Shown here: piece by piece, positions 3,973 to 30,600 of the stretch
Position numbering within the stretch: the stretch's first letter is position 1
How the letters are laid out: each line of letters begins with the position of its first letter
Source: a virus
Virus record (IMG/VR): IMGVR_UViG_3300047173_000017
Direction: 5' to 3' (one strand)
Length of the DNA stretch: 54,428 bases
Position numbers and translations under genes: made by a program
The notes under the pieces: model-generated
Told to the model about the DNA's origin: nothing
The model's database searches: none
Seen by the model: only the letters and a program-made list of their open reading frames with translations

Positions 3973-4102
3973 CTACAATGCCGGCGGTCCAGCGCAATTG
4001 CGCGCGCCGACGTGGCGCTGGCCGCGGCCCATTCATCGTGGCCGTCCGAGCCTCACCGGATGGCGCGCGCCTGGCGCGCATCGGCGTAACCAGGCTCCAA
4101 TA

Positions 4103-11898: not shown

Positions 11899-12272
11899 TG
11901 GCGCGCCTCTTCCACTTCGTTACTGCTCACTCGGACGGATCGGAAGAGGGCTATAAGTTTTGGTGCCCGTCGTGCGACGAAATGCACCGCTTCAGGACGA
12001 AGGCGCCGAACGTCCTTCGCTCCGACAACAAGCCATGGCCGGTCTGGAAGTTCGACGGCAACATGGAGTTCCCGACCTTCACGCCGTCACTGCGCTCGTT
12101 CTACACCGAGCCGGATTCCGGCGTGATGGTCACGCTGTGCCACCTGACGCTGACCGCCGGCAAGATCACCTACCACGGCGACCAGCCGAAGGACCGCAAG
12201 GGCCTGGCGTGGGCCGGCCGCGTCGTCGACCTGCCGACTCCCACCGCTGAGCAGATCCTTTCCTGGCTATGA
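11898..12272 (+). CDS. Hypothetical CxxC protein (124 aa) immediately upstream of terL
   Basis: ORF track. YKFWCPSCDEMH...LCHLTLTAGKITYHGD. TGATG and ATGA coupling on both sides. Confidence 0.65.
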   Translation: MARLFHFVTAHSDGSEEGYKFWCPSCDEMHRFRTKAPNVLRSDNKPWPVWKFDGNMEFPTFTPSLRSFYTEPDSGVMVTLCHLTLTAGKITYHGDQPKDRKGLAWAGRVVDLPTPTAEQILSWL

Positions 12273-13801
12273 GCGCGGTCGTCGCACAGACGCAGGGCGA
12301 CGCGTTCGTCGATGAGCTGGCCTACCGGCTGGCCGCGTTCGAGAATGACCCGGAAGGGTTCGTCGACTGGGCGTTCCCGTGGGGCGAGGTCGACACGCAG
12401 CTCGAGCACGAAGAGGGGCCCGACGCCTGGCAGCGCGAGCTCCTGGGTCGGATCGGCAACCAACTACGCGCCGGCGGCGATAGCGGTGCGCTGATCCTCG
12501 AGGCGATCCGCTCCGGCCACGGGGTCGGCAAGAGCGCGATGACGTCGTGGCTGACCATCTGGGCGCTGACCACGCGCAAGTTCACCCGTGGTGTAGTCAC
12601 CGCCATGTCGGACACGCAGCTGCGGACCAAGACGTGGGCCGAGGTCGCGAAGTGGTATGCCTTGTTCATTGGCAAGGATTTCTTCGAGTTCCAGGCGACC
12701 GCGCTGCTGCCGGACGGCGTGGAACCGGAAGAGTCGCGCGGCTGGCGGATCGACTGTGTTCCGTGGTCGGTTCATAACACGTCGGCCTTCGCCGGGTTGC
12801 ACAACAAGGGCGTGCGCCTGCTCCTGTTGTTCGACGAGGCGAGCGAGATCCACGATCAAATCTGGGAGATCGCCCGCGGCGCGCTGACCGACGCGAACAC
12901 GCAGATCATGTGGATCGTGTTCGGCAACCCGACACAGACCACCGGCGAGTTCTTCCAGTGCTTCAGCACCCGCACGCGCGAGTGGCACGGCACGACGGTC
13001 GACTCGCGCAACTCCCGCTTCAGCAACAAGGCGCTCATTGCAACCTGGATCGAGACGTATGGCGAGGACTCGGATTTCGTTAGGGTACGCGTGCGCGGCC
13101 TTCCGCCACGCTCAGGCATCAGTAACTTCATTTCAGTCGATGCGGTACAGGCTGCACGACGGCGGAATCTGGCGGCGCGTGACTACCTGCAGTATCCGAA
13201 GCGCATGGCCGTCGACCCCGCCCGCTTCGGTGACGATCAATCCGTGGTTACAGTCCGCCAGGGCCCGAAGGTCTGGCCGCAGTGGAAGTACAGCGGGCTC
13301 GACGGGCCGGATCTCTCGTCGCGGATCGTCACCGAAATCTGGCCTCATCACATGGACATCACCGGGTGCGCCGTGGACGCAATCGGTATTGGCGCAAGCT
13401 GTGCTGATGCGCTGGCCCGAGTTAAGCGCAACGATGCGAAGTTCCCGGTCCTAGAGGTCAACGTCGCGATGCCGGCGTGGCTGGATGATGAGTACAGCAA
13501 CCTGCGGGCCGAGCTTTGGGGCCGGATGCGGACCGGACTCGACCAGGCGCAGCTGCCCGACGACGACGAGCTCGAACAGCACCTAACGTGCGTGAAGTAC
13601 GGGTTCGACGGCAAGTCGAGGGTCCAGCTGGAATCGAAGCAGGACATCAAGCGGCGCGGCGATCCGTCGCCGGACTGCGGCGACTCGCTCAGCATGACGT
13701 ACTACGAGGACACGATCGTCAAGGCGGTCGCGGTGCGCGCGCGCGTCATTCCACGCAAGGCGCCGCGGGTCGTGCTGTGGCGCGGACAGCAGGTTAGCTA
13801 A
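12269..13801 (+). CDS. terL: Terminase large subunit
   Basis: 510 aa. Walker A SGHGVGKSAM and Walker B LLLFDEASEI, followed by a C-terminal nuclease-sized domain. Directly precedes the portal gene. Confidence 0.9.
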   Translation: MSAVVAQTQGDAFVDELAYRLAAFENDPEGFVDWAFPWGEVDTQLEHEEGPDAWQRELLGRIGNQLRAGGDSGALILEAIRSGHGVGKSAMTSWLTIWALTTRKFTRGVVTAMSDTQLRTKTWAEVAKWYALFIGKDFFEFQATALLPDGVEPEESRGWRIDCVPWSVHNTSAFAGLHNKGVRLLLLFDEASEIHDQIWEIARGALTDANTQIMWIVFGNPTQTTGEFFQCFSTRTREWHGTTVDSRNSRFSNKALIATWIETYGEDSDFVRVRVRGLPPRSGISNFISVDAVQAARRRNLAARDYLQYPKRMAVDPARFGDDQSVVTVRQGPKVWPQWKYSGLDGPDLSSRIVTEIWPHHMDITGCAVDAIGIGASCADALARVKRNDAKFPVLEVNVAMPAWLDDEYSNLRAELWGRMRTGLDQAQLPDDDELEQHLTCVKYGFDGKSRVQLESKQDIKRRGDPSPDCGDSLSMTYYEDTIVKAVAVRARVIPRKAPRVVLWRGQQVS

Positions 13802-16077
13802 TGGCCAGCAAGACACCCGCGGTCGGCGGCAGGATCACCCTGAAGGGTGGAGCGGCCGGTATCAACATGCAGCCGTTCGTCACCTTCAGCGGGCCGACGC
13901 AAACCGATGCGATCGGCAGCGACGGCGAAGATACGCTGCAGGTCAACTACGGCACCGAGTCGGCGCTGGCCGGGCATATCCGGTATCACTGGCAGCGCAA
14001 CAAACTGTTCAAGGAAAAGATCCAGCTCGAGCTGCTGCGCGACCTGCGCGCCAGGCGCGGCGTGTATTCCGCCGCACAGATGCAGCAGATGCAGGCCAAC
14101 GGCAACCGCAATTACGTGTGGGTCGACATCACCGAGACGAAGTGCCGCGCTGGATCGGCGTGGGTGCGCGAGGTCCTGATGCCGGTGGGCGATCGAGCTT
14201 GGCAGCTCACACCTTCACCGCTGCCGGAGCTGCCGGCCGAGTTCACGAAGATGATTACCGAGAAGGCTGCTGCGAAGGCCAGGGACGTCATGCAGCAGTC
14301 CTACCAGGCCGGGGTCAAGCCGCCGAGCCTCGAAGAGTTCCATCAGATGACGTGGGAAATCGCCGGCCAGATCAAGGACGAGGTCATGGACCGCGCGAAG
14401 AACGCGGCATCCGACGCGGCCGAGCGGATGGAAAAGCAGATCGAAGAGGACATGGACCTGGGTTCGTGGGACGTGGCGCTCGACGGTTGCATCGAAGACT
14501 TCCTGACGTTCAAGGCTTGCTTCATGATCGGGCCGGTCTACAAGCAAGTCTCGACGATGAAATGGTTGCCCGGCTTCAAGGTCAGCGTCGAGAAAAAGCC
14601 GCGCAAGACGTGGGAGCGCCTGGACCCGTTCGACGCCTTCCCTGCGCCCTACGGTGAGACGTGCCAGGTTGGCGACTTCATCGCGCGCCGTCGGTTTCGC
14701 CGCGATCAGCTGTACGACCTGATCGGCGTCGAGGGCTACAACGAACCGGCGATCCGCCAGGTTCTCGAGCACTACAGCAACGGCCACCTTGAGGCGTGGC
14801 TATGGACCGAGGCCGAGCGGCAGCGGCTGCAGCAAGAGACGATGTACACGTTCCTCAGCCCGTGGGGGATCATCGACGCCCTGTGGTACTGGGGCTCGGT
14901 GCCGGGCTGGAAGCTGATGGAGTGGGGGATGCTCGACGTCGCCGACCCCGTGCGCGAGTACGAGGTCGAGGCGATGCTGGTGGGCAAGTACGTCATCATG
15001 TGCCGGCTGAATCCGGACCCGTTGAAGCGCCGGCCGTTCTGGAACGCGTCCTATGACAAGATACCCGGCGCACTGTGGGGCCGCTCGGTGCCGGAGCTCG
15101 CCGAGACATCGCAGCGCATGTGCAACGCCGCGGCGTGCGCGATGGCCGACAACCTGGGGTTCGCATCGGGAGTGATGCTTTGGGTCCACAACGATCGCCT
15201 GGCCGAAGGCGAGGACCCGACCGATATCTACCCGTGGCGCATGTTCCAGCTCAAGTCAGACTCGAGCCAGGGCGTGAACCCCGGCATCGGCGTGCTGCAA
15301 ATCCCGGACATGAGTGCCAACCTTCAAGCACTCGTCGAGAAGTGGGACCAGCGCAGCGACGACGTGACGGGCATCCCGCGCTACACCTACGGCAACGAGC
15401 AGGTCGGGGGTGCCGCTGACACCTACGCCGGCCTGTCGATGCTCATGAATAACGCAGCCAAGGGGTTGCGCCGCGCGATCGCATCGATCGACCTAGGGAT
15501 CATCCAGCCGTCGCTGCAGATGACCTACGAGTACGAAATGATCTACGGCGACAACCTGGCCGCGAAGGGCGACTGCTACATCGAGGCTCGAGGCGCTGCC
15601 GCGATCCTGGTCAAAGAGGCGATGCGCCAGGCCTATCAGCAGATCCTTCAGGCCAGCGCGAACCCGATGGATCAACCGATCTTCGGCGTGACCGGCCGGG
15701 CCGAGGTCTGGCGGCATGTGCTCAAGGGCTCGAACATCCCGACCGACAACATCATTCCGCCGGACGAGACGCTGCGGAAGGATCAGCAGGACCAGCAGCA
15801 GCAGATGCTGGCCGCGCAGCAAACCCAGTTTCAGAACATGGCGCAGCAGCACCAGGGCGATCAGCAGTTCCAGATGCAGCTGCAGCAACAGAAGCTCGAC
15901 GCCGAGGAACGGATGCACGGTGCCAAGATCGGTGCGGACGTGGAGAAGGAACGCATCAAGCACGCGCAACCCGACGGCATCGAGTTCGACCACGACGAGC
16001 AGGGCAACATCAAGTCTGCCAGGCCGGTCAAGGGCAAGAACACCCAGCCGACTGAGAAAACGGGGATTCAGACGTGA
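13801..16077 (+). CDS. Portal protein (758 aa)
   Basis: Large ORF immediately after terL (TAATG overlap). Size and Gln-rich C-terminal tail are typical of portals. Call is positional plus size-based. Confidence 0.8.
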   Translation: MASKTPAVGGRITLKGGAAGINMQPFVTFSGPTQTDAIGSDGEDTLQVNYGTESALAGHIRYHWQRNKLFKEKIQLELLRDLRARRGVYSAAQMQQMQANGNRNYVWVDITETKCRAGSAWVREVLMPVGDRAWQLTPSPLPELPAEFTKMITEKAAAKARDVMQQSYQAGVKPPSLEEFHQMTWEIAGQIKDEVMDRAKNAASDAAERMEKQIEEDMDLGSWDVALDGCIEDFLTFKACFMIGPVYKQVSTMKWLPGFKVSVEKKPRKTWERLDPFDAFPAPYGETCQVGDFIARRRFRRDQLYDLIGVEGYNEPAIRQVLEHYSNGHLEAWLWTEAERQRLQQETMYTFLSPWGIIDALWYWGSVPGWKLMEWGMLDVADPVREYEVEAMLVGKYVIMCRLNPDPLKRRPFWNASYDKIPGALWGRSVPELAETSQRMCNAAACAMADNLGFASGVMLWVHNDRLAEGEDPTDIYPWRMFQLKSDSSQGVNPGIGVLQIPDMSANLQALVEKWDQRSDDVTGIPRYTYGNEQVGGAADTYAGLSMLMNNAAKGLRRAIASIDLGIIQPSLQMTYEYEMIYGDNLAAKGDCYIEARGAAAILVKEAMRQAYQQILQASANPMDQPIFGVTGRAEVWRHVLKGSNIPTDNIIPPDETLRKDQQDQQQQMLAAQQTQFQNMAQQHQGDQQFQMQLQQQKLDAEERMHGAKIGADVEKERIKHAQPDGIEFDHDEQGNIKSARPVKGKNTQPTEKTGIQT

Positions 16078-18131: not shown

Positions 18132-18464
18132 GTGGCCCTTCAATCTCCGGCTCTGCCGGTCGTGCAAGCGTTCGATGCAAACGGCAACCCGATCGGACAG
18201 TACGCCGGCACGCTGTCGCTCGGCGCTGGCAGCATCCAGATCACGGCGGCGCAGCTGGCATCGCCGCCAGCGTGGCTGTTTAACTTCTTGGCCGATGGAG
18301 GCGTCGCGCTTTACAACGGCTCTCGCTACGTCGTCAATGCGGCGGGAACGGGGCTGAATCAGATACTCGATTCCGGCGGTAGCTGGGCCGCCAACCTGCC
18401 GACAACCCTTCCCGCAACCTCCGGAGTTCTCTGGAACAACGGCGGCGTGCTCTCAATCTCGTAA
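18132..18464 (+). CDS. Tail-fibre-associated small protein (110 aa)
   Basis: GTG start with GAGAGG upstream. The C-terminal ...LPATSGVLWNNGGVLSIS motif is seen at ends of phage fibre proteins. Confidence 0.6.
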   Translation: MALQSPALPVVQAFDANGNPIGQYAGTLSLGAGSIQITAAQLASPPAWLFNFLADGGVALYNGSRYVVNAAGTGLNQILDSGGSWAANLPTTLPATSGVLWNNGGVLSIS

Positions 18465-18472
18465 GGCTCCCC

Positions 18473-19846
18473 ATGAAGCGCATCCTCGCACTACTCCTGC
18501 TCTTGCCGATGCTGGCGTGGGGGCAGAGCTATCCGTCGCCGCGCGTAAAGTCGTTGCTGGCAACGGATGGAACGACGCTGATTACTGCGCCCGCATCCGA
18601 CACCACGACGGTGGCGGCAGGCAATTTGTCACTGAATGCCTATACCAGCATCGGCTCGCCTCCAATCGGCACCGGCATGGCGATGGTGTCTATCGGCTAC
18701 GGAGCAATGCAGTACGTCACTACGCATTCATGCTCGTACTCGCTTTTTGATATTTACTCGGTGGCAATTGGAGAGTATTCACAACAATACGCCGCTGGGT
18801 GTGAGAATGTCTCAATTGGCATTAATACTTTAGAAAATGCGTCGTTTACTGGTTCATTCAATATTGCCCTTGGCAATGATGCTCTCGGCCAAGTAACGAG
18901 CGGAAACGAAAATATCGGAATCGGACACGGCGCGTGCGGTGGGGGAGTCAATACCCTTGCGGTGACGGGAAGTTTCAATGTCTGCGATGGTAGTGGCGCT
19001 GGGGACTATTTGAACGGCGCCGCCAATTACAATCTTTTTGAGGGCTATCTCGCGGGAGCGGGAGCGGCGGCCAATCCGAACAGCGGCTCACTCAATGTAG
19101 CTGAGGGGGCGTTTGCGCTTCAGAACATCAGTACGTCGAGCAGAAATGTCGCTATTGGTTATGGTGCGATGACAGGCTCTGCGTCTGCGCCATTGACCAG
19201 CGGATTTGCTTACAACACCGCGGTAGGATACGATGCCGGTTTAGTAATGCAGGGCGCCGCTAGCGCCAATACAGTAGTTGGTGCAGAAGCCGGCTATGCG
19301 ATTACAACCGCAAATGCTGATGTTATGGTCGGCGTTCAGGCCGGCGTGGCGGCCACGAGTTCAGGTAATACGCTAGTTGGTGCCTATGCCGGGAACAAAA
19401 TAGTTGGGGGTGGCAATAACACCGTGTTCGGTGCTGCTGTTGCGACTGCCACTCTTGTGAGCGGCAGCAACAATATTCTAATTGGCACATCTTCTGGCGT
19501 AGATACTGTTGCATCATCGACGTCGAACGAAATAAATATAGGCGGAGCACTGATTGGATTTTCAATTGCGCCGACGCTGACTAGCGGATGGGGAACAAGC
19601 CCGACGGCGCCGGCAGAAACGTCAACTTTCAGTTTCCATGCAACCGTTGGCGCAACCGGATCGCCAAGCACGACCGGCGTCATTGGCCTGCCGACCGCGC
19701 CGACGTCATGGAACTGCCGCGCCAATGACCTAACAAGCAACGTGACCGCGCGCATGACGGCACAGAGCGCGTCGAGTGTGACGTTCACATGGTCGAGCGC
19801 TCCGAGCAATTCGGACGTTATCTGGTTTGCCTGCAACGCGAACTAG
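18473..19846 (+). CDS. Adhesin/tail-fibre-like repeat protein (457 aa) with Sec-type signal peptide; low-GC gene
   Basis: N-terminus MKRILALLLLLPMLAWG/QSYP (n-h-c regions, AxG site). Repeats of the type NVSIGINTL, NIALGNDAL, NVAIGYGAM, NTAVGYDAG, NTVVGAEAG and NTLVGAYAG resemble YadA-head/fibre repeats. The DNA is visibly AT-richer than the flanks. Confidence 0.7.
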   Translation: MKRILALLLLLPMLAWGQSYPSPRVKSLLATDGTTLITAPASDTTTVAAGNLSLNAYTSIGSPPIGTGMAMVSIGYGAMQYVTTHSCSYSLFDIYSVAIGEYSQQYAAGCENVSIGINTLENASFTGSFNIALGNDALGQVTSGNENIGIGHGACGGGVNTLAVTGSFNVCDGSGAGDYLNGAANYNLFEGYLAGAGAAANPNSGSLNVAEGAFALQNISTSSRNVAIGYGAMTGSASAPLTSGFAYNTAVGYDAGLVMQGAASANTVVGAEAGYAITTANADVMVGVQAGVAATSSGNTLVGAYAGNKIVGGGNNTVFGAAVATATLVSGSNNILIGTSSGVDTVASSTSNEINIGGALIGFSIAPTLTSGWGTSPTAPAETSTFSFHATVGATGSPSTTGVIGLPTAPTSWNCRANDLTSNVTARMTAQSASSVTFTWSSAPSNSDVIWFACNAN

Positions 19847-20127: not shown

Positions 20128-20403
20128 ATGTTCTACGACGAGCTCGGTTACTGCGAAACGGCGCTGCCGCCGACGGCAGTGACCGCGCTCGCCACGCGCG
20201 ACGACTGGATCGAGCCGCCGCGCGTGATTCCTTCGGCGCGCTGCACGAAGCACCAGGTGCGCCCCACCGCGTTCCCTCTCTGTCTCCCCACTCCCGCGCG
20301 GTGGGTTTCGACCTGGTGGCAGCGCGCCCCTCCCGCTGACGTTGCCCATACCGTATTCCTTTCAGGAAGGGCGCCGCGTGCGCCCTTTTCGTTGAATGGC
20401 TGA
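20128..20403 (+). CDS. Doubtful ORF (91 aa) spanning a structured region
   Basis: AGGA 8 nt upstream. The first ~55 codons are GC3-rich, but the 3' half runs through a long hairpin and a terminator-like stem. Confidence 0.3.
   Translation: MFYDELGYCETALPPTAVTALATRDDWIEPPRVIPSARCTKHQVRPTAFPLCLPTPARWVSTWWQRAPPADVAHTVFLSGRAPRAPFSLNG
20251..20318 (+). other. Extended imperfect hairpin with a 25-nt pyrimidine-rich loop (possible structured RNA)
   Basis: Outer stem caccaggt (20251-20258) pairs with acctggtg (20311-20318). Inner stem cccaccgcg (20263-20271) pairs with cgcggtggg (20297-20305). Loop: ttccctctctgtctccccactcccg. Confidence 0.3.
20367..20394 (+). terminator. Rho-independent terminator candidate
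   Basis: aagggcgc-cgcgt-gcgccctt (8-bp stem, 5-nt loop) running into ttttcgtt. It ends 2 nt before ATG 20396. Confidence 0.5.
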
Positions 20404-22927
20404 TCCGATCCAGTCGAACAGCGGGCAGGCCAGCGGCACGGCGAACAACGTTCGCACGCTGTCGGGTGTTGCGGCCGGCGACACGCTGGTCGCCTGCTAC
20501 ATCAGCGATACCTCGACGACGCAGCCGTCGGTTCCGACCGACTCGTCCGGGCAGACCTGGACGCTGGGCCAGTTCATCGGCGGCAACAGCGTCGGCGTCA
20601 GCATCTGGTACTTGCTGAACGCGAACAGCGGGACGCACACGCTGACGTTTACCGCGCCAGCAAGCACCACCAGCAGCAGCGCGTGCCTGTCCGAGTTCGG
20701 TCCGGCGACCGCGACCGACGTCATCCCGGCCGGCTACAACGGCAACAGCCAGGCATCGCCATACGCCGGCCTGTCGATCACGCCGACGCAGGCCGGCGAC
20801 ATCGTCGTCTACGCGCTGGGCGGGTACGTGGGCGCCACGATCACCTGGACGCCGGCCACGGGGTACACGACCTGCGGCAGCTTCAGCACCGGCTCCAGCG
20901 ACCCGCCGTTCATCATGGCGGTGAAGGACGTCAGCGGCACCGCGGCCGAGACGCCGTCGACGAGCTGGACCGGCGGGTCGATCTCCGGCTTCGGCGCCGT
21001 GATGATGTCGTTCAAGACGGCCGCCGCCGCCGCACCGCAGCCGTGGACCGATCCGTGGGACTGGCACCCGGACGAGGTCGAGGACGACCTTTGGCAGCAG
21101 CAGCTTGATGCGCCGGTCGGCGCCGGCGTCATTCCGCCGCCGATCTACGACGACCCGTGGCCGTGGCGGGACGACGAAGGCGCACCCGACGATCAGCCGG
21201 AGTGGCAGGACGGCTCGGCGCCGGTCAGTACCTTTGTTGCGCTCGCACCGCCGGACGATCCGTGGCAGCACTGGGACGACGAGGCCAGCGACGACCAGGC
21301 GGTCGACGACGCGCCGATCGCCGCCGAGTCGGTGCTGGTCCAGCCCGCCGACGACTGGGCCTGGGACGAGGACGTCGGCGACGATCTCGCCGACCAGCTG
21401 CCGTCGGACGCCACCAGCTCAGACACGAACCCGATCGTCGCGCCGCTCGAGCTCGACTGGCCGTGGGACGAGGACCACGAAGATCGGTGGGAGGACTGGC
21501 AGGCCGATAGCACCGCGGTCGCCGAATCGCCGCTGACGCCGCCGGACGTCGACTGGGACTGGTCCGAGGACCAGGCCGACGAGGTCGAGGCCTGGCAGGC
21601 CGACTCGACGCCGGCCGCCGAGTCGCCCATCACGCCGGCCGACGTCGATTGGGATTGGAACGAGGACCAGGCCGACGAACAGGAGTCGTGGCAGTCCGAC
21701 GCGATGCCGGTCGGCGCCAACCTGCCAGTCACGACGCCTGGACCTGATGACCAGTGGGACCACGTCGACGAGGTCCCGGACGACTGGATCGAGTGGCCGG
21801 AACCCTCGAGCGCGCCGGTCGTGGCCGACGTCATCCCGCCGCCGGCAGACGTCGACTGGAATTGGGACGAGGACGTCGCCGACGAGGTCCCGGTCGACGA
21901 CCAGGCGATCGCCGCTGAATCGGTGCTCGAGGCGCCTACCGACGAGTGGGACTGGTATGGCGACGACGCAGCGCACGACGATGCACCCGAATGGCAGGAC
22001 GACGCGACGCCGGTTGGCACGTTCATTGCCGGCCCGGCGATTCCTGATGAGTGGCCGCACGACGACGACGATGCCGACGACTGGTGGCACCAGGGGGAGC
22101 CAACCTCTCAGCCGACCCCGCCGGATGTTGCCGGCTACCCGGTCGACGACGCCTGGCCGTGGCAGGACGACGAAGGGGCACCCGACGATCAGCCGGAGTG
22201 GCAGGACGATTCGCAGAGCATCCCGGCCAGCGTGCCGCCGAACCCGGCGCTCAACCTCGAGGACGCCTGGGACTGGTCGGACGCCGACAACCTCGTCGAC
22301 GATTGGGAGTCGTGGGAGGATCAGAGCGAGCCGGTAGGCCTGCCAGGGCCGACCCCGCCAGCGCCCGCTCCGGCTGGCCTGAACCCGCTCGACCCGCTGC
22401 TGGCCGCGCGCCGGCAGTGGGCGAACCTGGGCGTCAAGTGGGGCAGCAAGCCGGACCTGGTGCTGCAGGCCAAGACGAAGGCCGAGGTCCTTCGCCTGGC
22501 GCCGGTCGCGCGCGCGCTCAACGTTGCGCTCGAGCTCGGCCCGCTGCCGGGGCCGGTCGTGGCCAGGATCGCGCCGGACCCGTGGCGAATCTCGATCACC
22601 CTGCCGACGGTCGTCGCGCCCGCGAAGCCAGAGGAAAAACCGGAAGCGCCGCGCTGGACGCCGCCGCCGGAGCCGGAACCGCCGCCGCCACCGCCGCCAG
22701 AGGACCCGCAGGTCGCAGCACTGCGCCGGGAGATCGCCAGCCTCAAGCAGATGGTCGTGGAGGCGCAGCGGCGAGCCGCGATCAAGGCGGCGGAAGCCGA
22801 GCTCGCGCGGGACATCGCGCGGGCGGACGGCGACGCGGCGCTCGAGCGCGTGCAGGAAGAACGCCGAAAGCGCAACCAGCGCATCGCGGCCGAGCTAGCA
22901 GCAAGGCTTTATTTCCGCAAGCCGTGA
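20396..22927 (+). CDS. 843-aa protein: beta-rich N-domain, ~430-aa acidic Trp-rich repeat array, Pro-rich linker, C-terminal coiled coil
   Basis: ORF track. Repeats such as DVDWDWSEDQADEVEAWQADS. Linker PEEKPEAPRWTPPPEPEPPPPPPPEDP. The tail is rich in heptad-like A/E/R/K. Confidence 0.8.
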   Translation: MADPIQSNSGQASGTANNVRTLSGVAAGDTLVACYISDTSTTQPSVPTDSSGQTWTLGQFIGGNSVGVSIWYLLNANSGTHTLTFTAPASTTSSSACLSEFGPATATDVIPAGYNGNSQASPYAGLSITPTQAGDIVVYALGGYVGATITWTPATGYTTCGSFSTGSSDPPFIMAVKDVSGTAAETPSTSWTGGSISGFGAVMMSFKTAAAAAPQPWTDPWDWHPDEVEDDLWQQQLDAPVGAGVIPPPIYDDPWPWRDDEGAPDDQPEWQDGSAPVSTFVALAPPDDPWQHWDDEASDDQAVDDAPIAAESVLVQPADDWAWDEDVGDDLADQLPSDATSSDTNPIVAPLELDWPWDEDHEDRWEDWQADSTAVAESPLTPPDVDWDWSEDQADEVEAWQADSTPAAESPITPADVDWDWNEDQADEQESWQSDAMPVGANLPVTTPGPDDQWDHVDEVPDDWIEWPEPSSAPVVADVIPPPADVDWNWDEDVADEVPVDDQAIAAESVLEAPTDEWDWYGDDAAHDDAPEWQDDATPVGTFIAGPAIPDEWPHDDDDADDWWHQGEPTSQPTPPDVAGYPVDDAWPWQDDEGAPDDQPEWQDDSQSIPASVPPNPALNLEDAWDWSDADNLVDDWESWEDQSEPVGLPGPTPPAPAPAGLNPLDPLLAARRQWANLGVKWGSKPDLVLQAKTKAEVLRLAPVARALNVALELGPLPGPVVARIAPDPWRISITLPTVVAPAKPEEKPEAPRWTPPPEPEPPPPPPPEDPQVAALRREIASLKQMVVEAQRRAAIKAAEAELARDIARADGDAALERVQEERRKRNQRIAAELAARLYFRKP
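21443..21721 (+). repeat. Three consecutive in-frame repeat units (87/96/96 nt) within the acidic Trp-rich array
   Basis: PLELDWPWDEDHEDRWEDWQADSTAVAES / PLTPPDVDWDWSEDQADEVEAWQADSTPAAES / PITPADVDWDWNEDQADEQESWQSDAMPVGAN. Also a 54-nt copy pair at 21158-21211 and 22154-22207 with 2 mismatches. Confidence 0.85.
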
Positions 22928-22963
22928 TGCTATGGTGCGGCGTGTTTACGTGAGTGGAACGGC

Positions 22964-23245
22964 GTGAAGCAACTTGTGCTCGAACCGATCGAATTGCAGA
23001 CCCTTGCCGCCATTGCCGGCGGGCCCGTCGGGCAAACGATCATCGGCATGTTGCAACGCCACCAGGCATCACTGGAAGCCGAGGCGCGGACACTCGATGC
23101 CCCCGCGGTCTTTCGCAATCTAGGAGCGGTGACGGTCTTGGTCGAGATCGCCGCCGCCATCCGGAGCGCGCACGACACCCTCGAGGAAGTACGCCGGAAG
23201 CAGCAAGCCCATGCTATCCGCACCCGGTCCGCGACCCCGGTCTAA
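22964..23245 (+). CDS. Hypothetical protein (93 aa)
   Basis: GTG start; ORF track. Confidence 0.55.
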   Translation: MKQLVLEPIELQTLAAIAGGPVGQTIIGMLQRHQASLEAEARTLDAPAVFRNLGAVTVLVEIAAAIRSAHDTLEEVRRKQQAHAIRTRSATPV

Positions 23246-23299
23246 TGGTCGCCCCATGACGCCGTCCGTAAGCCTGACCCGCTGAAAGCGAATCCTGGT

Positions 23300-24325
23300 A
23301 TGTCATCCGTTCCGAGCGTTTCTCCCACCAGTTTGCGAATCCCGAAGCAGGTCGCAGCGCGAGCGGCGCGAGCCGATGCACTGCTGGCCGAACGGGCGCA
23401 GGCTGCAGATCCACCGCCGTCGGTCGATCCATCAGCCGCGGCAGCACCGAACCCAGCACCGCCAGCCCCAAGCATCGAATCCCTGTTGCAAGCACCGTCT
23501 CCCGAGAAGGATGCCGACATTGCCTACTGGCGCGCGCGAGCGAACGCGGTAGAAGGTATCCGGCGCGCGGAGGCGACGAAAGCTGCCGCACAGGTCCAGA
23601 CGCTACGGGCGGAAGTCCAGGCACTCGCATCGCAGATCGCCGAGCTGCAAACGAAGCCAGCGGCAGCAGCCGCACCGGCCGACCAGCTGCCGACGATCAA
23701 GGTCGCCGACCTGATCTCACCCGAACAGCTCGAGGATATTGGCGAGGATCGTGCAGTCGCGATCATCAACGCCACCATGAAGGCGCTCCTTCCTGCGGTT
23801 CAAGCGCAGGTCCAGGCGGCGACGAAACCTCTTGCCGACGATGTCGCGCGCCGCGCGAAAAAGGATCAGGAGGAAGCCGCAGATGCAGCGGCACGCAAGC
23901 AGACCGCGTTCATCGACGCACTGACTGCCGCACTGCCTAACTGGTTGAAGATCAACGAGGACCCGCAGTTCGTGGCCTACTGCCGCACCATCGACCCTAA
24001 TACCGGCACTGAACGGCAACAGGAGTTGGCGCGGTACGACGCAGCGAAGAACGCGACCGGCGCGATCAATTTCTTCCAGAATTTCCTGAAGGCATCGGGA
24101 GCACTCCCGACGCCGGCGGCACCGCCAACGACGCCGACATCGCAGCCGACGTCGAGCGGTTCAGCGCCACCAGCCCCACCAGGCCAGCGGATCTCGGACG
24201 CGGAAGTTCGCGAGGGATTTAAGGCGATCAACACGGGGATTTGGAAGCCCGGCCGGGACGACGCGAAAATCGCGGAGTTCCACCAGCGGGTCGCGCAGCG
24301 CATGGGACCAGGTCTGCCGAGGTAA
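23300..24325 (+). CDS. Scaffolding protein candidate (341 aa)
   Basis: Immediately upstream of the coat gene. Ala/Gln/Pro-rich with long helical/coiled-coil stretches. Positional inference. Confidence 0.55.
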   Translation: MSSVPSVSPTSLRIPKQVAARAARADALLAERAQAADPPPSVDPSAAAAPNPAPPAPSIESLLQAPSPEKDADIAYWRARANAVEGIRRAEATKAAAQVQTLRAEVQALASQIAELQTKPAAAAAPADQLPTIKVADLISPEQLEDIGEDRAVAIINATMKALLPAVQAQVQAATKPLADDVARRAKKDQEEAADAAARKQTAFIDALTAALPNWLKINEDPQFVAYCRTIDPNTGTERQQELARYDAAKNATGAINFFQNFLKASGALPTPAAPPTTPTSQPTSSGSAPPAPPGQRISDAEVREGFKAINTGIWKPGRDDAKIAEFHQRVAQRMGPGLPR

Positions 24326-24403
24326 CGAAGGACTCAACGACTCAGGAGGGAGGGAGCAACGCGCGGAGATTCCTATGACGCCTAATTCGATCAGGAGATC
24401 AGC

Positions 24404-25363
24404 ATGGCAGGCGTACCGCGCGCAGCAGGAGTTCCCGACTACACCCCGAGCGGTGTGGTCAATTTCGACCCGGAGATTTATTCGGGCAAGCTCGTCGAGA
24501 AGTTCTACAAGACGACCGTGTTCGGCGAGATCGCGACCACGGATTACGAAGGCGACATCGTCGGCTTCGGGGCACAGGTTCGCATCCGCACCGTGCCGGA
24601 CATCACCGTCTCGCCCTACATCATCGGCGCTGGGCTGACGGCGCAGTATCCCTCGAGCAACGCCGTGGTCCTGGCGATCAACCAGGCCTACTCGTTCAAC
24701 GTCGCACTGAGCATGGTCGACGCGCGCCAGTCGGATCTCGACCTGGCCGACGTGTTCGCCAACGACGGCTCGATTCAGCTGAAGATCCAGGCCGACCTGG
24801 ACATGCTGACCACCATCCCGACGCAGGTCGCCTCGTTCAACACCGGCGCCACTGCCGGCCAGGACAGCGGCAACCTGAACCTGGGATCGGTGGGCACGTC
24901 GGTGCAGCTGGTGCCGACGGGCGCGACGGGCGCGCAGGAAAACGTCGTCGATTTCATCACCTACTGCGGGCAGGCGCTGGACGAGACGAACGTCTCGGAC
25001 GAGGGCCGCTGGCTGGTCGCGACGCCGTGGTTCATCAACCTGGTGAAGCGTTCCAACCTGCAGATCGCCTCGTTGGCTGGTGATGGCGTCTCGATCCTGC
25101 GGAACGGGAAGGTCGGGATGATCGACCGCTTCAACCTGTTCCAGTCGCGCAACGTCCAGAAGAACGTGCCTGGCGGCGCGACCGCGACGAGCTGGTCCGT
25201 GATGTTCGGCCACCCGGCCGGTCTGGCGTTCGCAGCGCAGATCGTCGAGGCGCAGATGATCGACAACCCGAGCGACTTCGGCTGGCTGATCCGGGGGCTG
25301 ATGGTATTCGGCTTCCAGACGATCCAGTCGACGTACCTTGGCACGGGCTACGTTCACCCGTAA
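24404..25363 (+). CDS. Major capsid protein (P22-coat-like family)
   Basis: 319 aa. N-terminal FDPEIYSGKLVEKFYKTTVFGEIATTDYEGDIVGFGAQVRIRTVP matches the conserved opening of P22-type coat proteins. AGGAG upstream; a hairpin follows. Confidence 0.85.
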   Translation: MAGVPRAAGVPDYTPSGVVNFDPEIYSGKLVEKFYKTTVFGEIATTDYEGDIVGFGAQVRIRTVPDITVSPYIIGAGLTAQYPSSNAVVLAINQAYSFNVALSMVDARQSDLDLADVFANDGSIQLKIQADLDMLTTIPTQVASFNTGATAGQDSGNLNLGSVGTSVQLVPTGATGAQENVVDFITYCGQALDETNVSDEGRWLVATPWFINLVKRSNLQIASLAGDGVSILRNGKVGMIDRFNLFQSRNVQKNVPGGATATSWSVMFGHPAGLAFAAQIVEAQMIDNPSDFGWLIRGLMVFGFQTIQSTYLGTGYVHP

Positions 25364-25375
25364 CCTCTGAAGCAC

Positions 25376-25399
25376 CGCACCGGCCAGCTGGTCGGTGCG
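25376..25399 (+). terminator. Hairpin after the coat gene (attenuator/stabiliser candidate, no U-tract)
   Basis: ccgcaccggcc-agct-ggtcggtgcg, about a 10-bp stem with one G-U pair, 13 nt after the stop. Confidence 0.3.
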
Positions 25400-25423
25400 T
25401 CTCCCACCAGGAAGGAATCAACC

Positions 25424-25789
25424 ATGAAGCACAACGTAGCGGACGCTGGGGGCAAGCCCGGCATCCCCAAGGTCTACGACCAGGACGACCCGCAGCTTGG
25501 CGAAGGGGTGCTGCACCGGCCCGTGATGCCGCCCACCACGATCGAGCGCCAGATGAAGCTCGCGTCGGGCAAGGCGAAGATGCGGTTCATTTACCAGCCG
25601 CAGATGGCCGACAAGCACACCGCCGGCCCGGACTCCGGTCAGCCGGACCCGAAGGACGTCGGTTCGGACCGCGAGGGCGGCGCCGACCAGGCGCTGCACG
25701 CCAGCGGCGGCGGTGGCGGCAAGAAAGGCCGGATCAAGCACCGATCGACCGGCGGGTCCAGCATCACCGGGATTCCATCGGGCGCCTAA
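25424..25789 (+). CDS. Hypothetical head-region protein (121 aa)
   Basis: ORF track. GGAAGGA upstream. Gly-rich C-terminus. Confidence 0.6.
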   Translation: MKHNVADAGGKPGIPKVYDQDDPQLGEGVLHRPVMPPTTIERQMKLASGKAKMRFIYQPQMADKHTAGPDSGQPDPKDVGSDREGGADQALHASGGGGGKKGRIKHRSTGGSSITGIPSGA

Positions 25790-25813
25790 TTCTGGCGGGT
25801 GCGTTACAACCGA

Positions 25814-25840
25814 GGGGCGGCGGATTCCGCCCCACCTTTC
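25814..25840 (+). terminator. Terminator-like hairpin
   Basis: ggggcgg-cggatt-ccgcccc (7-bp GC stem) followed by acctttcc. Confidence 0.4.
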
Positions 25841-25855
25841 CAATGAGGCACCGCA

Positions 25856-26287
25856 ATGCAGCTATCAGGCCAACAACGCGACCCGCAGGGGTCGGGGAGG
25901 CAACGAGTGCAAATCCTCTGCATCAGAGACGACGGCTATGTTTGCATGGCCAACGACATCGGCATTCTCCAATCGCAGGGGAAGCTGCGGCCGTACCACG
26001 GCAAGATCGACGCGACGCTCGAGGAGCGCCTGGCCTACTTGCGCGGCGTGATGATTACGCCGAACGCGCCCGAGGCCACCTTCGACCTGTCGACCGCCGA
26101 CAAGGCCGCGGTCATTGAGTACATCAGCGACGAGTACGGCAAGACGATCGACAAGCGTCTGCCGGTCGAGCGGGTGCGCGAGGTCGCGCTGGGCATCATC
26201 GCTGAGCAGAAGGCGAACAGCATGGCCGCGCAGCAGCAGCAAACCAAGCAAGCCGCGGCCGGCCTGAACGTGAAGAAGGCCGCGTAA
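25856..26287 (+). CDS. Hypothetical head-region protein (143 aa)
   Basis: GAGG 7 nt upstream; ORF track. Confidence 0.6.
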   Translation: MQLSGQQRDPQGSGRQRVQILCIRDDGYVCMANDIGILQSQGKLRPYHGKIDATLEERLAYLRGVMITPNAPEATFDLSTADKAAVIEYISDEYGKTIDKRLPVERVREVALGIIAEQKANSMAAQQQQTKQAAAGLNVKKAA

Positions 26288-26950
26288 GTGTCGCTCACCG
26301 CCGGGACTGTGATCGGCGACGTGCGAAACACGTTGCTCGATCCTGAACCCGGCGTTGCCTGGTCCGACGCTGAGCTGTACGGCTATCTGACTTCCGGCCT
26401 GCTGGCTGCGGCGATGCTCAAGCGGGACATCAACCCGATCGTCGGGTCGATACCGCTGGTCGCCGGCACGATTCAAACCTTGCCGTCATCGAACCCGCAG
26501 GGCCTGCAGCTGCTCGACGTTTACTTCAACACGGCGTCCGGCTACGCCGTGACGAAGGGCGTGCTTCGCCTGCTCGATCAGATGGTCCCGACCTGGCGCG
26601 CAGCGACCGCAACCGTCGACGTCACCGAGGCAATGTTCGATCTTCGGTCGCCGCTGATCTTCCACGTTACGCCACCGAACACCGGGACCGGCGCTGTCAC
26701 CGCGCTCTTCGGTGCGGTGCCGAACGCGGTCGCCGGGTCGGGCGATCTATGCCAGGTTCCGGACGTGTACCGCGCCGCCTTGTGGGCATACGTCTGTGCC
26801 GAGGCTTACGCGAAAAATTCCAGGCGCCAGGATCTCGTCAAGTCGTCCCAGCTGTACTCAGCGTTCGAGCGGTGGGTTGGCATGGGTGGAACGAACCAGG
26901 CGCAGCTGGCCGCAATGCAGGAAGTCGCAACCGCGGCGAGCGAAAAGTAA
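26288..26950 (+). CDS. Head-tail adaptor-like structural protein (220 aa)
   Basis: GTG start abutting the upstream stop. The opening VIGDVRNTLLDPEPGVAWSDAELYGYL resembles phage adaptor/connector families. Tentative. Confidence 0.55.
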   Translation: MSLTAGTVIGDVRNTLLDPEPGVAWSDAELYGYLTSGLLAAAMLKRDINPIVGSIPLVAGTIQTLPSSNPQGLQLLDVYFNTASGYAVTKGVLRLLDQMVPTWRAATATVDVTEAMFDLRSPLIFHVTPPNTGTGAVTALFGAVPNAVAGSGDLCQVPDVYRAALWAYVCAEAYAKNSRRQDLVKSSQLYSAFERWVGMGGTNQAQLAAMQEVATAASEK

Positions 26951-27688
26951 ATGGCCAACTTTGCAATCTCATCCGCCGCGGTCGCGCCGCAACCGCCGAT
27001 CAGCCAGACGCTTGCGCCGATCGTCAACTACGTGCCGCACGTTTCTTCAATCCTGAAGTCGGTTCCGGACCTGGTACATGAGCAAGCGTTGCTGCGCGCC
27101 GCGATCGACTTTATGCGCCGCAGCAGGTGGTTTCGCGATCAGATCAATATGTCGACCGCGGTCATCACGCCGAGCCCGACGGTCAATGTCGGGATCTACA
27201 CCCTGACCGAGACGAACGCGCAGTTCGAGATCATCGACCTGAACGGCGCGGCGATCCAGCAGCCGAACAGCATCAGCGCATCGCAGCCACAGGGGGCATG
27301 GACTCCGATCGGCTACACGGCACCCGAGTACATCGACCAGAACCGCGCGCCGTCCATGCCGAGCAACGTGTTCTACGTGCCGGAAGGGCAGATCGGTTTT
27401 TACCCGATACCCGATAAGGTCTATGCGGTGCAGATCGGCGTGGTCCTCGAGCTCACGACGACGGCCACACAGCTGCCGGTCGCGCTGATGACGAAGTGGA
27501 AGAGGTTTATCGAATCGGGTGCGCTTGCCTATCTGTACGGCGCGAAGGAAGAGGACTGGTTCGACCCGCGGGAGCGCGACTGGCACGCGCAGATTTTCGA
27601 GGACGGCCTTGCCAACGCGCGCGCCGATGTTGCCCGCAGCAACCAGCGCGGCAGCGTGCGAGCGCGCGGGCGCGCGTTTGCCATCTGA
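26951..27688 (+). CDS. Structural protein (245 aa), adaptor/tubular-A-like
   Basis: Starts 1 nt after the upstream stop. Positional inference. Confidence 0.6.
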   Translation: MANFAISSAAVAPQPPISQTLAPIVNYVPHVSSILKSVPDLVHEQALLRAAIDFMRRSRWFRDQINMSTAVITPSPTVNVGIYTLTETNAQFEIIDLNGAAIQQPNSISASQPQGAWTPIGYTAPEYIDQNRAPSMPSNVFYVPEGQIGFYPIPDKVYAVQIGVVLELTTTATQLPVALMTKWKRFIESGALAYLYGAKEEDWFDPRERDWHAQIFEDGLANARADVARSNQRGSVRARGRAFAI

Positions 27689-27694
27689 GGTCAT

Positions 27695-30600
27695 GTGGCA
27701 ATCAACATCATGGAGTTCAAGGGTGAGGCGCCACGCCTTACCCCGGATCAACTGCCTGACGGCATGTCGCAGTCCGCGGTCAACGCGCGGCTGCTGTCAG
27801 GGGCGCTCGAGGCCTGGCAGGATTTCGTCGCGACGCATAGCGGCGACACGTCGGCACCCGTCTCGATCTACCTGCTCGCCGAGTCCTACTGGCTAGAGTG
27901 GGCTGCGTCGGCGCTCGGTGCGTATGCCACCGAGGTCGACGTCGCGCAGTGCGCGGTCGCCGGCGATACCAGCAACCGGGTCATCTTCTGCGGCACCGAC
28001 GCGCCGCGGTTCACCGACATCGGCCTGGCGACTGGCCTGGTCGACGGCAGCGGCAATCCAATCACCGGAAGCTCGACGCCTGGTCCAGCGACGACCGGCC
28101 TGCCGGTCTACTCACGCAAGCTCGGCGTTCCTAATCCCGGCAGCAACGATCCGATCGTTCTCGCGACCACCAGTTCCGAGACGACGATCGAGGCGCAGCT
28201 GGGCTACTACCAGCCGACCACGTTCGTGTCTGTGGATACCAACGCGGCCGGAAGCCCAGTGTCGATCACCGACACGTTCGACGGTGGAGCGAACAACGGC
28301 TGGACGCTGAGCACGAACACGGGCACGCCGTTTACCAACTTCTCCGAGGCGCAAATCATCGCGACCGGCGGCGATGCCGGGACCGGCAACGGTTGCCTGG
28401 ACCTGCAATCGAACAATGCCAACGCGTCGGCGATGCGGCAGTTCGGGGTCGAGACAAGTGCGGCGATCACCTTTCAGGTCGATTTCAACGTTATCTCACT
28501 TCCAAACTACGACTACGCTTTTGGCTTCCACTGCGGCCGCGACGCGGCGGACCTTGAGGGCGTCCTGTTTTACTGGGATTTCCAGTCGCCGGGTTACTCC
28601 TGGTGGAAAGCAAACTACAGTTCCTCCCTGGTGTTGAGTTCCGGCAACTTCGGCGGAAGCATTGAGTTCCCACTTAATACCTGGCTTACCTTCAAGTGCA
28701 CGATCACGCCTAGCGGCTCGGCTGTCGCCGATTACTCATTCCAGGTGTTCAACGGCGCAACACTGCTGGCCAGCTTCACGCTGAGCGGGTATCCCATCGT
28801 CGGGAACAATTTTGGCTTCAACGCCTACGGCGGCGGCAACAACGGCAATTCGGGCGTGCTGCATGTCCAGTATGACAACGTGCAGATCAATGCGTCGTCG
28901 ACCGGGTCGACCGAGAATCCGCCGGTTGCAGTGTCCTACGTCTACACGCTGTCGAACGATCTCGGCCAGGAGTCGGGGCCGAGCTCGCCGAGCTACCCGC
29001 CGATCACCAGGTCCGACGGCACCGCGGTGACGGTCGGCCTGCCGACGACGCTCGACTGGGGCCAGTTCACCGGCGGCTTGCACGTCGAACCGACGGCCGC
29101 GAATCCAGCGATCGGCCCGACGACGGCGACCGGCGGCGGCGGCGGGTATGCCGGGGTGGACCCGACCTACTTCGAGATCGGCACCTACACGCCGATCGCG
29201 CTGCTGAAGATCAACCTGTACCGGACCGTCACGACCGACAACGGCACGTCGTTCCTGTTCGTCACCAGCCAGCCATTCGGCACCGCGTTCTACGTCGATT
29301 CCCTCGAGGACGCGGCACTGTCCAATGCGCTGAACACGTCGGACTGGGCGCCACCGCCAACGAACATGCAGGGCATCCTGGCGCTGCCGAACGGGATCTA
29401 TGCCGGGTTCTTCGGCAACCAGCTCGCGCTGAGCGCACAAGGGGTGCAGCACAGTTACCCGGTTTCCTACCGGCTCACCTTCGATACCGCGGTCGTGGCG
29501 ATCGGCAACGTCGACACGATGGTCGTGGTCGCGACGAAGAGCTTTCCTTACATCGCCTACGGCACGACGCCGGACAGCTACAGCGAGTCGAAGATCGAGG
29601 CGCCGCATCCGTGCCAGAGCAAGCGCAGCCTGGCCTACTTGCGCGGGGTCGGCGTGGCGTACTCGACCGCCGATGGCCTGGTCGCGATCGCCGGGCCTGG
29701 TCGCGCGAACCTCGTCACGCAGGGGCTATTCACAGACCGCGAGTGGAAGGCGCTGAACCCGTCGTCGCATATCAGCGCGGTGAAGGATGATCGGTACTTC
29801 TGCTGGTATCAGACATCGAACGCCAGCGGCGGCACTACGACGCCGACGGTGCTGCAGAGCACCGACCAGGTGGTCAACCAGACCTACGGTGGCGTGTACA
29901 CCGCGCAGCTGATCCTGAATGGCGTGCAGTCCGGCAGCACGATCGTCGTCGGGTTCGCGGGTGCGAGCCTGGTCCAATCGGTTGCGGACGGCCAGGGGAC
30001 CTACCAAGCGGCGGCACTCGACGGCGCGCTCGGCGTCAGCGCGGACGTCGGCATCTTCGTGCTGACCGGAGCGGTTGCCGGCACTCACACGATCACGCTG
30101 ACGAGCCAACCTGCAGACGGTCCGACGATCGCCGCAGTGGCCTATGAGGTAACGGCCAGCACCGTGCAGGACGTGGGCACGTCGGTCCAGCTGCAGAGTG
30201 TCGCAGCTAACGCCGTGTTCGACGGCGCGATCACCACGACCGGCAACAATCGGCTGGTCATCGGGTTTGTCGCGTCGGAAATCAATTTCACTCAGCCGCT
30301 CGCCCTGGCGCCGCTCACACTCGCTCCGAACCCGAGCAGCGAGGTATACCCTTCTGTCGCGATGGCCTGGGTTGCCGAGGCATCGGCGGGCGCGGTGACG
30401 CTGCCGTTCCAGAACAATTCACTGGTGGCCGTGGACGATTTCTCGTTCGTCGCGATTTCCCTGGGTTCCGGCGGCGTGACGAAGGGCGGCTTCGTTCTCG
30501 ACTTGCGCGAGGCGGGTGCTGGCAAGATGAGTCTCGCGTTCCACGCGACCGCGCGCTATGACGATCCGCAGGCCGACAAACTCTACGTCGTCATGGACTA

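Follow-up and report, generated by a model that had tools for sequence, protein, structure and literature searches.

The phage contig IMGVR_UViG_3300047173_000017 (54,428 nt, 65.7% guanine plus cytosine (GC), hereafter the window) contains a gene whose 843-aa product is built around thirteen tandem copies of an acidic, tryptophan-rich repeat. This repeat is real, rare and undescribed, and the protein around it is of a familiar kind. What it adds is a new building block for phage fibres, not a novel type of system. With a probability of roughly 0.55, the gene product is a virion fibre or adhesin consisting of a swappable head, a polyanionic W-x-W stalk and a lineage-specific C-terminal end. The interpretation given in a first-pass annotation, which was made from the DNA letters alone, is partly supported by the analysis described here.

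The array (aa 211-649) contains 129 Asp and Glu residues against 2 Lys and Arg, together with 39 Trp and 13% Pro. It is divided into 13 units of 30-38 aa each (about 33 aa) with the core motif [ED]-D-x-W-x-[WH]-x-[ED]-[DE]. Ten units carry the W-x-W and three a degenerate W-x-x-W or W-x-H. Each unit has a 13-16-residue acidic aromatic core of the form [ED]-D-x-W-x-[W/H]-x-[ED]-[DE]-x-x-[DE]-[DE]...W (for example P-P-D-V-D-W-D-W-S-E-D-Q-A-D-E-V-E-A-W-Q), which is followed by a neutral Pro/Ala/Val spacer. All 13 units are recovered by the unit profile in a local hmmsearch, and the whole protein reaches an expect value (E) of about 1e-97. The W.W pattern is found 10 times, compared to 3.4 +/- 1.7 times when the region was shuffled 10,000 times (p = 4e-4), and the Trp autocorrelation has its maxima at lags 32-36 and 64-69. 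With these units, this periodicity and this excess, the acidic Trp-rich array claimed in the first-pass annotation is borne out. That it would consist almost entirely of D, E, W, P, A and Q was somewhat overstated: these residues dominate, but they sum to only ~70% (aa 213-645: D 21.5%, P 13.4%, A 11.8%, W 9.0%, E 8.3%, V 7.2%, Q 6.0%, S 5.5%). At the DNA level a 96-nt period is detected at 21441-21710 by Tandem Repeats Finder, and the DNA-level repeats match the protein units. The three consecutive units of 29, 32 and 32 aa reported earlier at 21443-21721 correspond to units 5-7 (21428-21724).

The repeat is carried by few known proteins. When a 65-position di-unit profile was searched against 1.84 billion representative proteins, 34 proteins were found at E<=1e-3 and 15 at E<=1e-10; the window's protein (the target), which scores E 3.8e-74, was itself among the sequences that built the profile. 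An uncurated set of acidic WxW repeat proteins was defined here (P0001, P0002 and P0007-P0038) by at least four tandem units of 28-37 aa with the core [ED]-D-x-W-x-[WHF]-x-[ED]-[DE], and the target belongs to it with its 13 units. The copy number in the family ranges from 4 to 27, and the anchor spacing, scored by a simple anchor rule, is 28-37 aa (median 32, n=277 spacings). Across 357 units from 33 proteins W0 is conserved in 97% and D-2 in 71%. Position +2 is occupied by W, H, F or Y only, and acidic residues are found at +3 to +5 and +8 to +9. The contigs that carry the repeat span 53% to 67% GC. In several members lectin-type domains are embedded in the array (Laminin_G_3 in P0007, an arabinofuranosidase-type domain in P0013 and Gly_rich_2 in two members).

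No family in Pfam-A, PHROGs v4, NCBIfam 20 or PADLOC 2.0 matches the whole 843-aa protein, and none in the curated libraries was found when three parts of the protein were searched separately at E up to 5. The PDB sequences yielded no significant match either (best E 0.08, to the C-terminal helix only), in agreement with the earlier remark that the repeat lies outside the described families. Likewise, a collection of 50,697 cultured-phage records gave no match in tblastn with the target, P0007 and P0010, nor in megablast with 20 kb of the window, and no description was found in the literature searched for acidic tryptophan-rich repeats in phages. A DNA pattern for DW[DN]WDED returned 15 loci from IMG/VR, and the already known relative is the sole family member among them. 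The loci L026-L039 except L036 (IMG/VR; nine from sample 3300045988) contain open reading frames (ORFs) of 127-173 aa with one DW[DN]WDED each and fall outside the repeat family. In bacterial genomes the same pattern gave at least 120 singleton chance matches, none of them with a regular array, and these yielded no clue to a host or prophage.

The reading frame could be assessed with the sister contig L002, which has about 97.5% DNA identity to the window. For aa 272-649, 8 synonymous changes and 1 non-synonymous change were counted (ratio of non-synonymous to synonymous substitution rates, dN/dS, 0.03), and for aa 650-843 these are 9 and 1 (dN/dS 0.04). In the same comparison, none of the terminase (0.06), portal (0.10) and capsid (0.19) genes has a lower dN/dS. 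The N-terminal domain is the most diverged part of the gene (dS 0.16, dN 0.045). Against the more distant homologue L160, dN/dS lies between 0.12 and 0.41 across the comparable regions, and the repeats are the most constrained of these, as follows from the 82% identity and the dN/dS of 0.12 of the last two units (Table 1). Judged by these substitutions, the reading frame of the repeat gene is genuine and the array is no mere filler. The first-pass annotation had named frame disruption in close relatives as evidence that the region is not translated; instead, the indel relative to L002 is in frame and the frame is under purifying selection. The notion that the repeat is merely a DNA-level artefact of an untranslated, GC-rich tandem repeat can thus be regarded as effectively refuted. 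High-GC DNA does give long ORFs in several frames, and the start codon is preceded by a hairpin and lacks a clear adjacent Shine-Dalgarno sequence. However, the synonymous to non-synonymous ratios of 8:1 and 9:1 against L002, the dN/dS of 0.12 at a dS of about 1.3 against L160, the in-frame indel and the recurrence of the same peptide motif in phages of 53-67% GC all contradict it.

The length of the array is variable. L002 and L021, which originate from two samples, contain a long form of 1204 aa. In blastn, L002 9733-10771 aligns with window 20128-21166 and L002 11823-23615 with window 21135-32927; the junction of the resulting 1083-nt indel falls inside a 32-nt stretch that is common to the units on both sides. 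The segment missing from the window comprises six units plus a second beta-sandwich. The proposal of recombination (duplication or gene conversion) among units is backed by this junction, and the near-identity of a 54-nt segment in units 2 and 12, on which the proposal had been founded, is confirmed and extends to 64 of 70 positions. The comparison of copy number among relatives that had been advised gave the above 4 to 27 units, with the sister phage form 361 aa longer. L002 in turn lacks a 2,040-nt segment that precedes the repeat gene in the window and includes a 457-aa ORF matching phrog_4636 'tail spike protein' (E 1.7e-14). This segment is a presence/absence cassette adjoining the repeat gene. 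Together, the two absences mark the portal-to-scaffold interval as a variable cassette of host-interaction and lysis genes.

For the structure of the array, six units were modelled with AlphaFold2 as a monomer without ions, using a 19-row in-register alignment from 12 family members. The model has a predicted local distance difference test (pLDDT) score of 54.5, a predicted template modelling (pTM) score of 0.14 and no secondary structure. On a charge-hydropathy plot the array lies far on the disordered side (H 0.39 vs a boundary of 0.52). By these two predictions the monomeric array would be a polyanionic, proline-rich and extended chain, and as a monomer it is best described as non-globular. 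The rod or solenoid that had been suggested before is not supported by the model.

The N-terminal domain (aa 1-210), in contrast, is confidently modelled. It is rich in Thr, Ser, Gly and Ala, has a net charge of -7 and is all-beta in AlphaFold2 (12-row alignment, pLDDT 90.6, pTM 0.89), as the first reading of the sequence had proposed. Foldseek against BFVD matched it with a TMq of 0.7-0.84 and a probability of 1.0 to uncharacterised phage proteins and to nine actinophage 'minor tail protein' entries, with further matches in phages of Rhizobium, Sinorhizobium, Roseobacter and Synechococcus. The domain thereby belongs to the minor-tail-protein beta-sandwich module (defined by a TM-score of at least 0.5 and a confident model). 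A fold search of the PDB gave only weak, generic beta-sandwich matches (TM about 0.25). In Mycobacterium phage Tourach the matching gp24 is encoded in the minor-tail cluster, two genes downstream of one that is Gp77-like.

The same domain is 79% identical in the phage L005/L008/L009, which otherwise detectably has only a 21%-identical portal in common with the window. L008 and the sister contig L002 were obtained from the same Joint Genome Institute (JGI) sample, 3300048790, and both observations point to a recent module exchange between co-occurring phages. The stalk behind it there is a quite different one, a Gly/Ala/Ser/Thr/Val repeat, as it is behind the 75-79%-identical domain of P0003 and P0004. 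P0002 and P0019 contain the domain a second time, internally. By these comparisons, the N-terminal domain is a mobile and fast-evolving module, behind which the stalk seems to be interchangeable.

In an alignment (A6), the N-termini of P0009, P0010, P0012, P0015, P0022 and P0024 follow the beta-rich pattern of the target; the profile of the N-terminal domain detects only P0012, P0019 (internal copy) and, weakly, P0024. Other stalks are seen behind the same domain. In L013 (5794-8559) it is fused to a second acidic aromatic repeat (..PEDEDFGF..FLVGTE..), in L012 (5619-7583) to GSGSAAIxEPxDTV repeats that end in PDDRRIV x3, and in L011 (5992-8361) to Ala/Gly/Ser repeats. L010 contains an 812-aa ORF (3512-5950) whose N-terminal part looks like a glycoside hydrolase by eye and whose C-terminal part resembles the N-terminal domain of the target, also by eye (..WYRANVAAGSYTINMAP..); two stand-alone ORFs of 229 and 244 aa that resemble this domain come after it.

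The part that follows the array can be subdivided into three segments. The segment aa 650-743 contains the blocks LNPLDPLLAARRQWANLGVKWG and LELGPLPGPVVARI, conserved with respect to L160, and is placed among folded sequences by charge-hydropathy. The Pro linker (aa 744-770) varies in sequence, and its Pro-rich character is kept in L160 and P0019. It had been called TonB-like: the Pro-rich stretch is present, but the likeness is compositional only. An identity as TonB was rejected, since the protein begins with a beta-sandwich instead of an N-terminal membrane anchor and no TonB_C domain is matched. The last 73 aa (771-843) are charged, Ala-rich and poor in Pro and Gly. A charged coiled coil had been claimed for this part; the charged segment is there, but the heptad signal is weak, so that the coiled coil is no more than plausible. 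The C-terminus of the target shows a co-linear 32% match to that of P0019, which is significant only without composition correction, and their homology is suggestive.

Two kinds of C-terminus occur in the family. The target, P0002, P0019, P0009, P0014, P0020 and P0037 end in a Pro-rich stretch and a charged helix. In P0012, P0013, P0022, P0027, P0028 and P0035, as well as in L012 and L013, three to six short basic beta-type peptides (e.g. GRTFTVYLRQRSFTVALPARPFTVKW) are found. Three is the commonest copy number of these basic peptides, and a small gene of 90-130 aa comes next, a Gp77 gene at three loci. The combination of basic peptides and small gene suggests a strand-type docking of the fibre C-terminus on immunoglobulin-like (Ig-like) adaptors.

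All 11 examined contexts of the repeat family are phage head or neck modules. The window phage is of a short-tailed type, with SU10-type portal and adaptors and a capsid that is 40% identical to that of Rhizobium phage RHph_TM3_14A. In the window, L002 and L014 the order is portal, fibre, 93-98-aa gene, scaffold and capsid; in L003, L017 and L022 it is terminase, fibre, a gene of roughly 100 aa, portal and Mu F. The next gene in L015, L018 and L024 belongs to the Pfam family Gp77 (E 3e-8 and 2e-26, plus one precomputed match). The small downstream genes of L016 (P0009) and L023 (P0008) match neither the 93-aa protein nor Gp77, and in a profile-profile comparison Gp77 was unrelated to the small downstream genes of L003, L017, L022 and L023. 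For the 93-aa protein of the window, no Gp77 (PF23148) match and no BLASTP similarity to Gp77-like proteins were found; its gene is also present in L002, L021 and L160. Glycosidase-like genes adjoin some relatives. A role among the tail or virion proteins, as had been put forward, is consistent with this gene context.

The anatomy of the repeat, the selection acting on its frame, the N-terminal fold and its horizontal exchange, the indel of the sister phage and the gene contexts are taken as demonstrated. From these data we infer the virion location, the polarity, the oligomeric state and the ligand of the WxW cores as follows. The protein most likely lies at the surface of a short-tailed virion. 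Its beta-sandwich head would contact the host surface, as this domain is swapped between unrelated phages and evolves fast. With so few basic residues against its acidic ones the array chain cannot collapse on its own, and it may serve as a tether some tens of nanometres long, stiffened electrostatically, by which the head is kept off the particle. Recombination between units would then reset the length of the tether. A passive spacer would not be expected to conserve its WxW cores so strictly; these should therefore make specific contacts, either from chain to chain in an oligomer, perhaps through bridging divalent cations, or with glycans of the host surface. A cation- or polysaccharide-binding surface, one of the options of the first-pass annotation, is still a candidate. 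The region aa 650-843 would oligomerise and dock on the particle, possibly together with the downstream 93-aa protein. This polarity is proposed because the N-terminal domain crosses between phages with 21%-identical portals, and the C-terminal part, like the 93-aa gene, keeps to its phage lineage.

Several observations weigh against a fibre of this design. The repeat gene lies within the head-gene region, between portal and scaffold, and not among recognised tail genes, and its placement on the virion is inferred for a family that no cultured phage of the 50,697-record collection carries. The downstream 93-aa protein of the window is helical and not a Gp77; the link to an adaptor is therefore seen in only 3 of the 11 contexts, all of them in other lineages. 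In the C-terminal segment the best heptad register has 67% hydrophobic a/d positions when Ala is included and only 24% Leu, Ile, Val, Met or Phe. The polarity may also be reversed: classical fibres are attached to the virion by their N-terminus, and the best sequence match of Tourach gp24 to the beta-sandwich profile is at its N-terminus, although non-significant (hhalign E 0.05). Finally, plain disorder of the array is hard to square with its narrow range of unit lengths and a WxW that hardly varies, and since AlphaFold2 was run on a monomer with a 19-row alignment, a fold that requires oligomerisation or metal ions could have escaped the model.

Such a fold would make the array a regular shaft of a new type, in which the units fold only in the oligomer or with metal ions, with Trp pairs in the core and carboxylates on cations. 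Fibre shafts of phages are mostly trimers, for which monomer predictions often turn out poor. The units of even diverged proteins keep to 28-37 aa, no residue other than W, H, F or Y is found at the second aromatic position, and the C-terminal helical segment could set the register. The complete lack of secondary structure in AlphaFold2, the composition (13% Pro, 30% Asp+Glu) and a charge-hydropathy value deep in the disordered range nevertheless render this shaft rather improbable. It is equally doubtful that the array itself is the adhesin, its WxW cores binding host sugars weakly (by Trp stacking and Asp/Glu hydrogen bonds) or binding lipopolysaccharide or exopolysaccharide via bridging Ca2+/Mg2+, so that thirteen copies would provide a multivalent and reversible first contact. 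Here, an array with net charge -127 should be repelled by Gram-negative surfaces, which are mostly anionic, unless cations bridge the two; no known carbohydrate-binding family matches and no pocket-forming fold is predicted. On the other side stand the stronger purifying selection on the cores than on the C-terminal helix, the conservation of W0 and D-2 across the family, the wide span of copy numbers and the lectin-like domains interleaved with the repeats in P0007, P0012, P0013 and P0019. Trp and Asp are moreover the residues most enriched in carbohydrate-binding sites. Both ideas return in a speculative extension of the fibre reading, to be held with little confidence, in which the WxW unit is a new fibre module: either a cation-dependent, self-associating shaft with an unseen fold, or a multivalent glycan/cation 'Velcro' for the first reversible contact. 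The array would then act as a spring that responds to ions, contracting where cations are abundant at the cell surface and pulling the particle closer.

The location of the gene leads to two further explanations. The protein could be a capsid-attached head fibre or decoration with a layout like that of T4 Hoc, instead of a neck or tail fibre. Its gene lies between the portal and the scaffold and capsid genes in the lineage of the window and just ahead of the portal in L003, L017 and L022, and a C-terminal anchor with N-terminal display is the Hoc layout. The Gp77 fibre-tail adaptor genes that come next in three relatives, the occurrence of the N-terminal fold in proteins annotated as minor tail and the tail-spike-like gene that adjoins in the window argue for the tail, which leaves the head fibre a minority option. 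Far less probable is that the protein enters the cell along with the genome, either as internal cargo that is packaged or ejected or as a polyanion against host defences (DNA mimic). Apart from the extreme negative charge and the position in the head-assembly gene region, only the Mu F-type minor head proteins that adjoin some relatives favour it. Recognised internal virion protein genes are found elsewhere (e.g. 27695-30958, phrog_511), the horizontally exchanged and fast-evolving beta-sandwich is shared with tail proteins, and the lectin-like domains of relatives would be of no obvious use inside a capsid. The known mimics Ocr and ArdA are small folded proteins, whereas the acidic part here is predicted to be non-globular, and no anti-defence or DNA-mimic family is matched. 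An identity as a DNA mimic of the Ocr or ArdA type was accordingly rejected; this possibility, raised in the first-pass annotation, has no positive evidence and is at odds with the company of the repeat in relatives, namely domains of lectin-like and tail-protein-like type and genes for fibre adaptors.

The coordinates of the gene, its parts and its neighbours are collected in Table 1.

Table 1. Features of the repeat gene and its surroundings in the window, with the comparisons made for each (aa identity and dN/dS refer to L160).
Feature	Position (nt)	Strand	Remarks
Coding sequence of modular fibre/adhesin-type protein	20396..22927	+	ATG start; 843 aa plus stop; identical protein recorded as P0001
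N-terminal beta-sandwich domain, aa 1-210	20396..21025	+	putative host-contact module; AlphaFold2, BFVD Foldseek
Acidic W-x-W array, aa 211-649	21026..22342	+	13 units; net charge -127
Units 1-5	21026-21127, 21128-21232, 21233-21325, 21326-21427, 21428-21523	+	
Units 6-10	21524-21619, 21620-21724, 21725-21826, 21827-21916, 21917-22021	+	
Units 11-13	22022-22123, 22124-22237, 22238-22342	+	
Last two repeat units, aa 577-649			82% aa identity; dN/dS 0.12, dS about 1.3
54-nt segment in unit 2	21158..21211	+	52/54 identical to 22154-22207
54-nt segment in unit 12	22154..22207	+	partner of 21158-21211
Junction of in-frame 1083-nt (361-aa) indel vs L002/L021	21135..21166	+	overlapping blastn alignments
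Non-acidic conserved segment, aa 650-743	22343..22624	+	possible small docking domain; 74.5% aa identity; dN/dS 0.35
Pro-rich linker, aa 744-770	22625..22705	+	52% Pro; 58% aa identity; dN/dS 0.41
Charged Ala-rich helix-type C-terminal segment, aa 771-843	22706..22924	+	ends in conserved L-[YF]-[FI]-R-K-P; 42.5% aa identity; dN/dS 0.32
Conserved 93-aa downstream gene	22964..23245	+	possible partner of fibre C-terminus; 38% identical to 98-aa gene at same position in L014, E 2e-14
Upstream 91-aa ORF	20128..20403	+	overlaps start codon of repeat gene; gene call in L002
2,040-nt segment without counterpart in L002	18088..20127	+	blastn; 110-aa ORF 18132-18464 and 457-aa tail-spike-like ORF 18473-19846
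Tail-spike-like gene	18473-19846		followed by repeat gene, then 93-aa gene
Terminase	12269-13801		followed by portal 13801-16077, then endolysin
Putative scaffold	23300-24325		followed by major capsid 24404-25363, then two SU10-type adaptors

Two observations concern the DNA around the gene. A GC-rich hairpin (GGGCGC-CGCGT-GCGCCC followed by TTTT, 20369-20389) ends 6 nt 5' of the ATG at 20396, and this start is the one without a clear adjoining Shine-Dalgarno sequence. The hairpin may be a terminator or attenuator between the 91-aa ORF and the repeat gene. Further downstream, an ORF of 3,438 aa (35873-46189, plus strand) is without a PHROG match and contains the Pfam domain ART-PolyVal at aa 2366-2489 (E 1.6e-8), the ADP-ribosyltransferase of 'polyvalent proteins'. 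With such a domain, the product resembles a giant polyvalent protein, which may be injected, more than it does a virion RNA polymerase of the N4 type.

Fibres and adhesins set the host range of phages, and their stalks are normally made from a small set of known folds. The stalk described here stands out in being extremely acidic and Trp-rich, predicted to be non-globular, strongly constrained and absent from curated families and cultured phages. Its strong conservation despite the predicted disorder is the unexplained point. If the repeat binds sugars or cations, or folds on assembly, it would be a new element in the repertoire of phage-host contacts, and it would also offer a compact, length-tunable spacer for engineering. 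In addition, the family connects fibre-adaptor genes with the N-terminal beta-sandwich, a domain common among phage proteins that are still uncharacterised, and thereby helps to annotate it.

The closest fold relatives of the head are the actinophage 'minor tail proteins' of the Mycobacterium phages Gaia, Tweety and Tourach (gp24), which match with a TMq of 0.70-0.75 and a probability of 1.0, in Tourach with the Gp77-like gene close to gp24. The sequence identity is only 11-18%, however, and these are siphophages of Gram-positive hosts, whose genomes in the cultured-phage collection gave no match to the target, P0007 or P0010. As to the stalk, the Ser-Asp (SD) repeats of the staphylococcal Clf/Sdr proteins and the Pro-rich spacer of TonB are low-complexity, charged and extended regions that space a binding domain from its anchor, and by analogy the array may act in the same way. 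SD repeats are dipeptides, and TonB combines (EP)n/(KP)n with a TonB_C domain. There is no sequence relation to either, and the array differs in its ~33-aa unit and in its conserved WxW core under strong selection. T4 Hoc, to which no homology was detected and which has no acidic repeat, is a dispensable, modular, adhesin-like protein with Ig-like domains. It is attached by its C-terminus and displays its N-terminal domains outwards, the same arrangement of C-terminal anchor and N-terminal display that is proposed here.

The protein can also be compared with the side fibres of the Ralstonia phage GP4 (gp77 adaptor) and of the Pseudomonas phage DEV (gp53). In GP4 the adaptor is a 93-aa Ig-like protein, fifteen copies of which ring the head-to-tail adaptor and hold the fibres (PMC11445570). 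Several relatives of the repeat gene likewise have a Gp77 gene directly behind them, the window phage is a podophage with SU10-type adaptors, and in each case a long modular protein combines a globular end with a repetitive stalk. An acidic WxW array is not mentioned in that account of DEV and GP4 (PMC11445570), and the downstream gene of the window codes for a helical protein and not for a Gp77. In DEV the fibre is anchored by an N-terminal beta-sandwich (PMC11445570), whereas in the protein described here the lineage-specific end is the C-terminal one.

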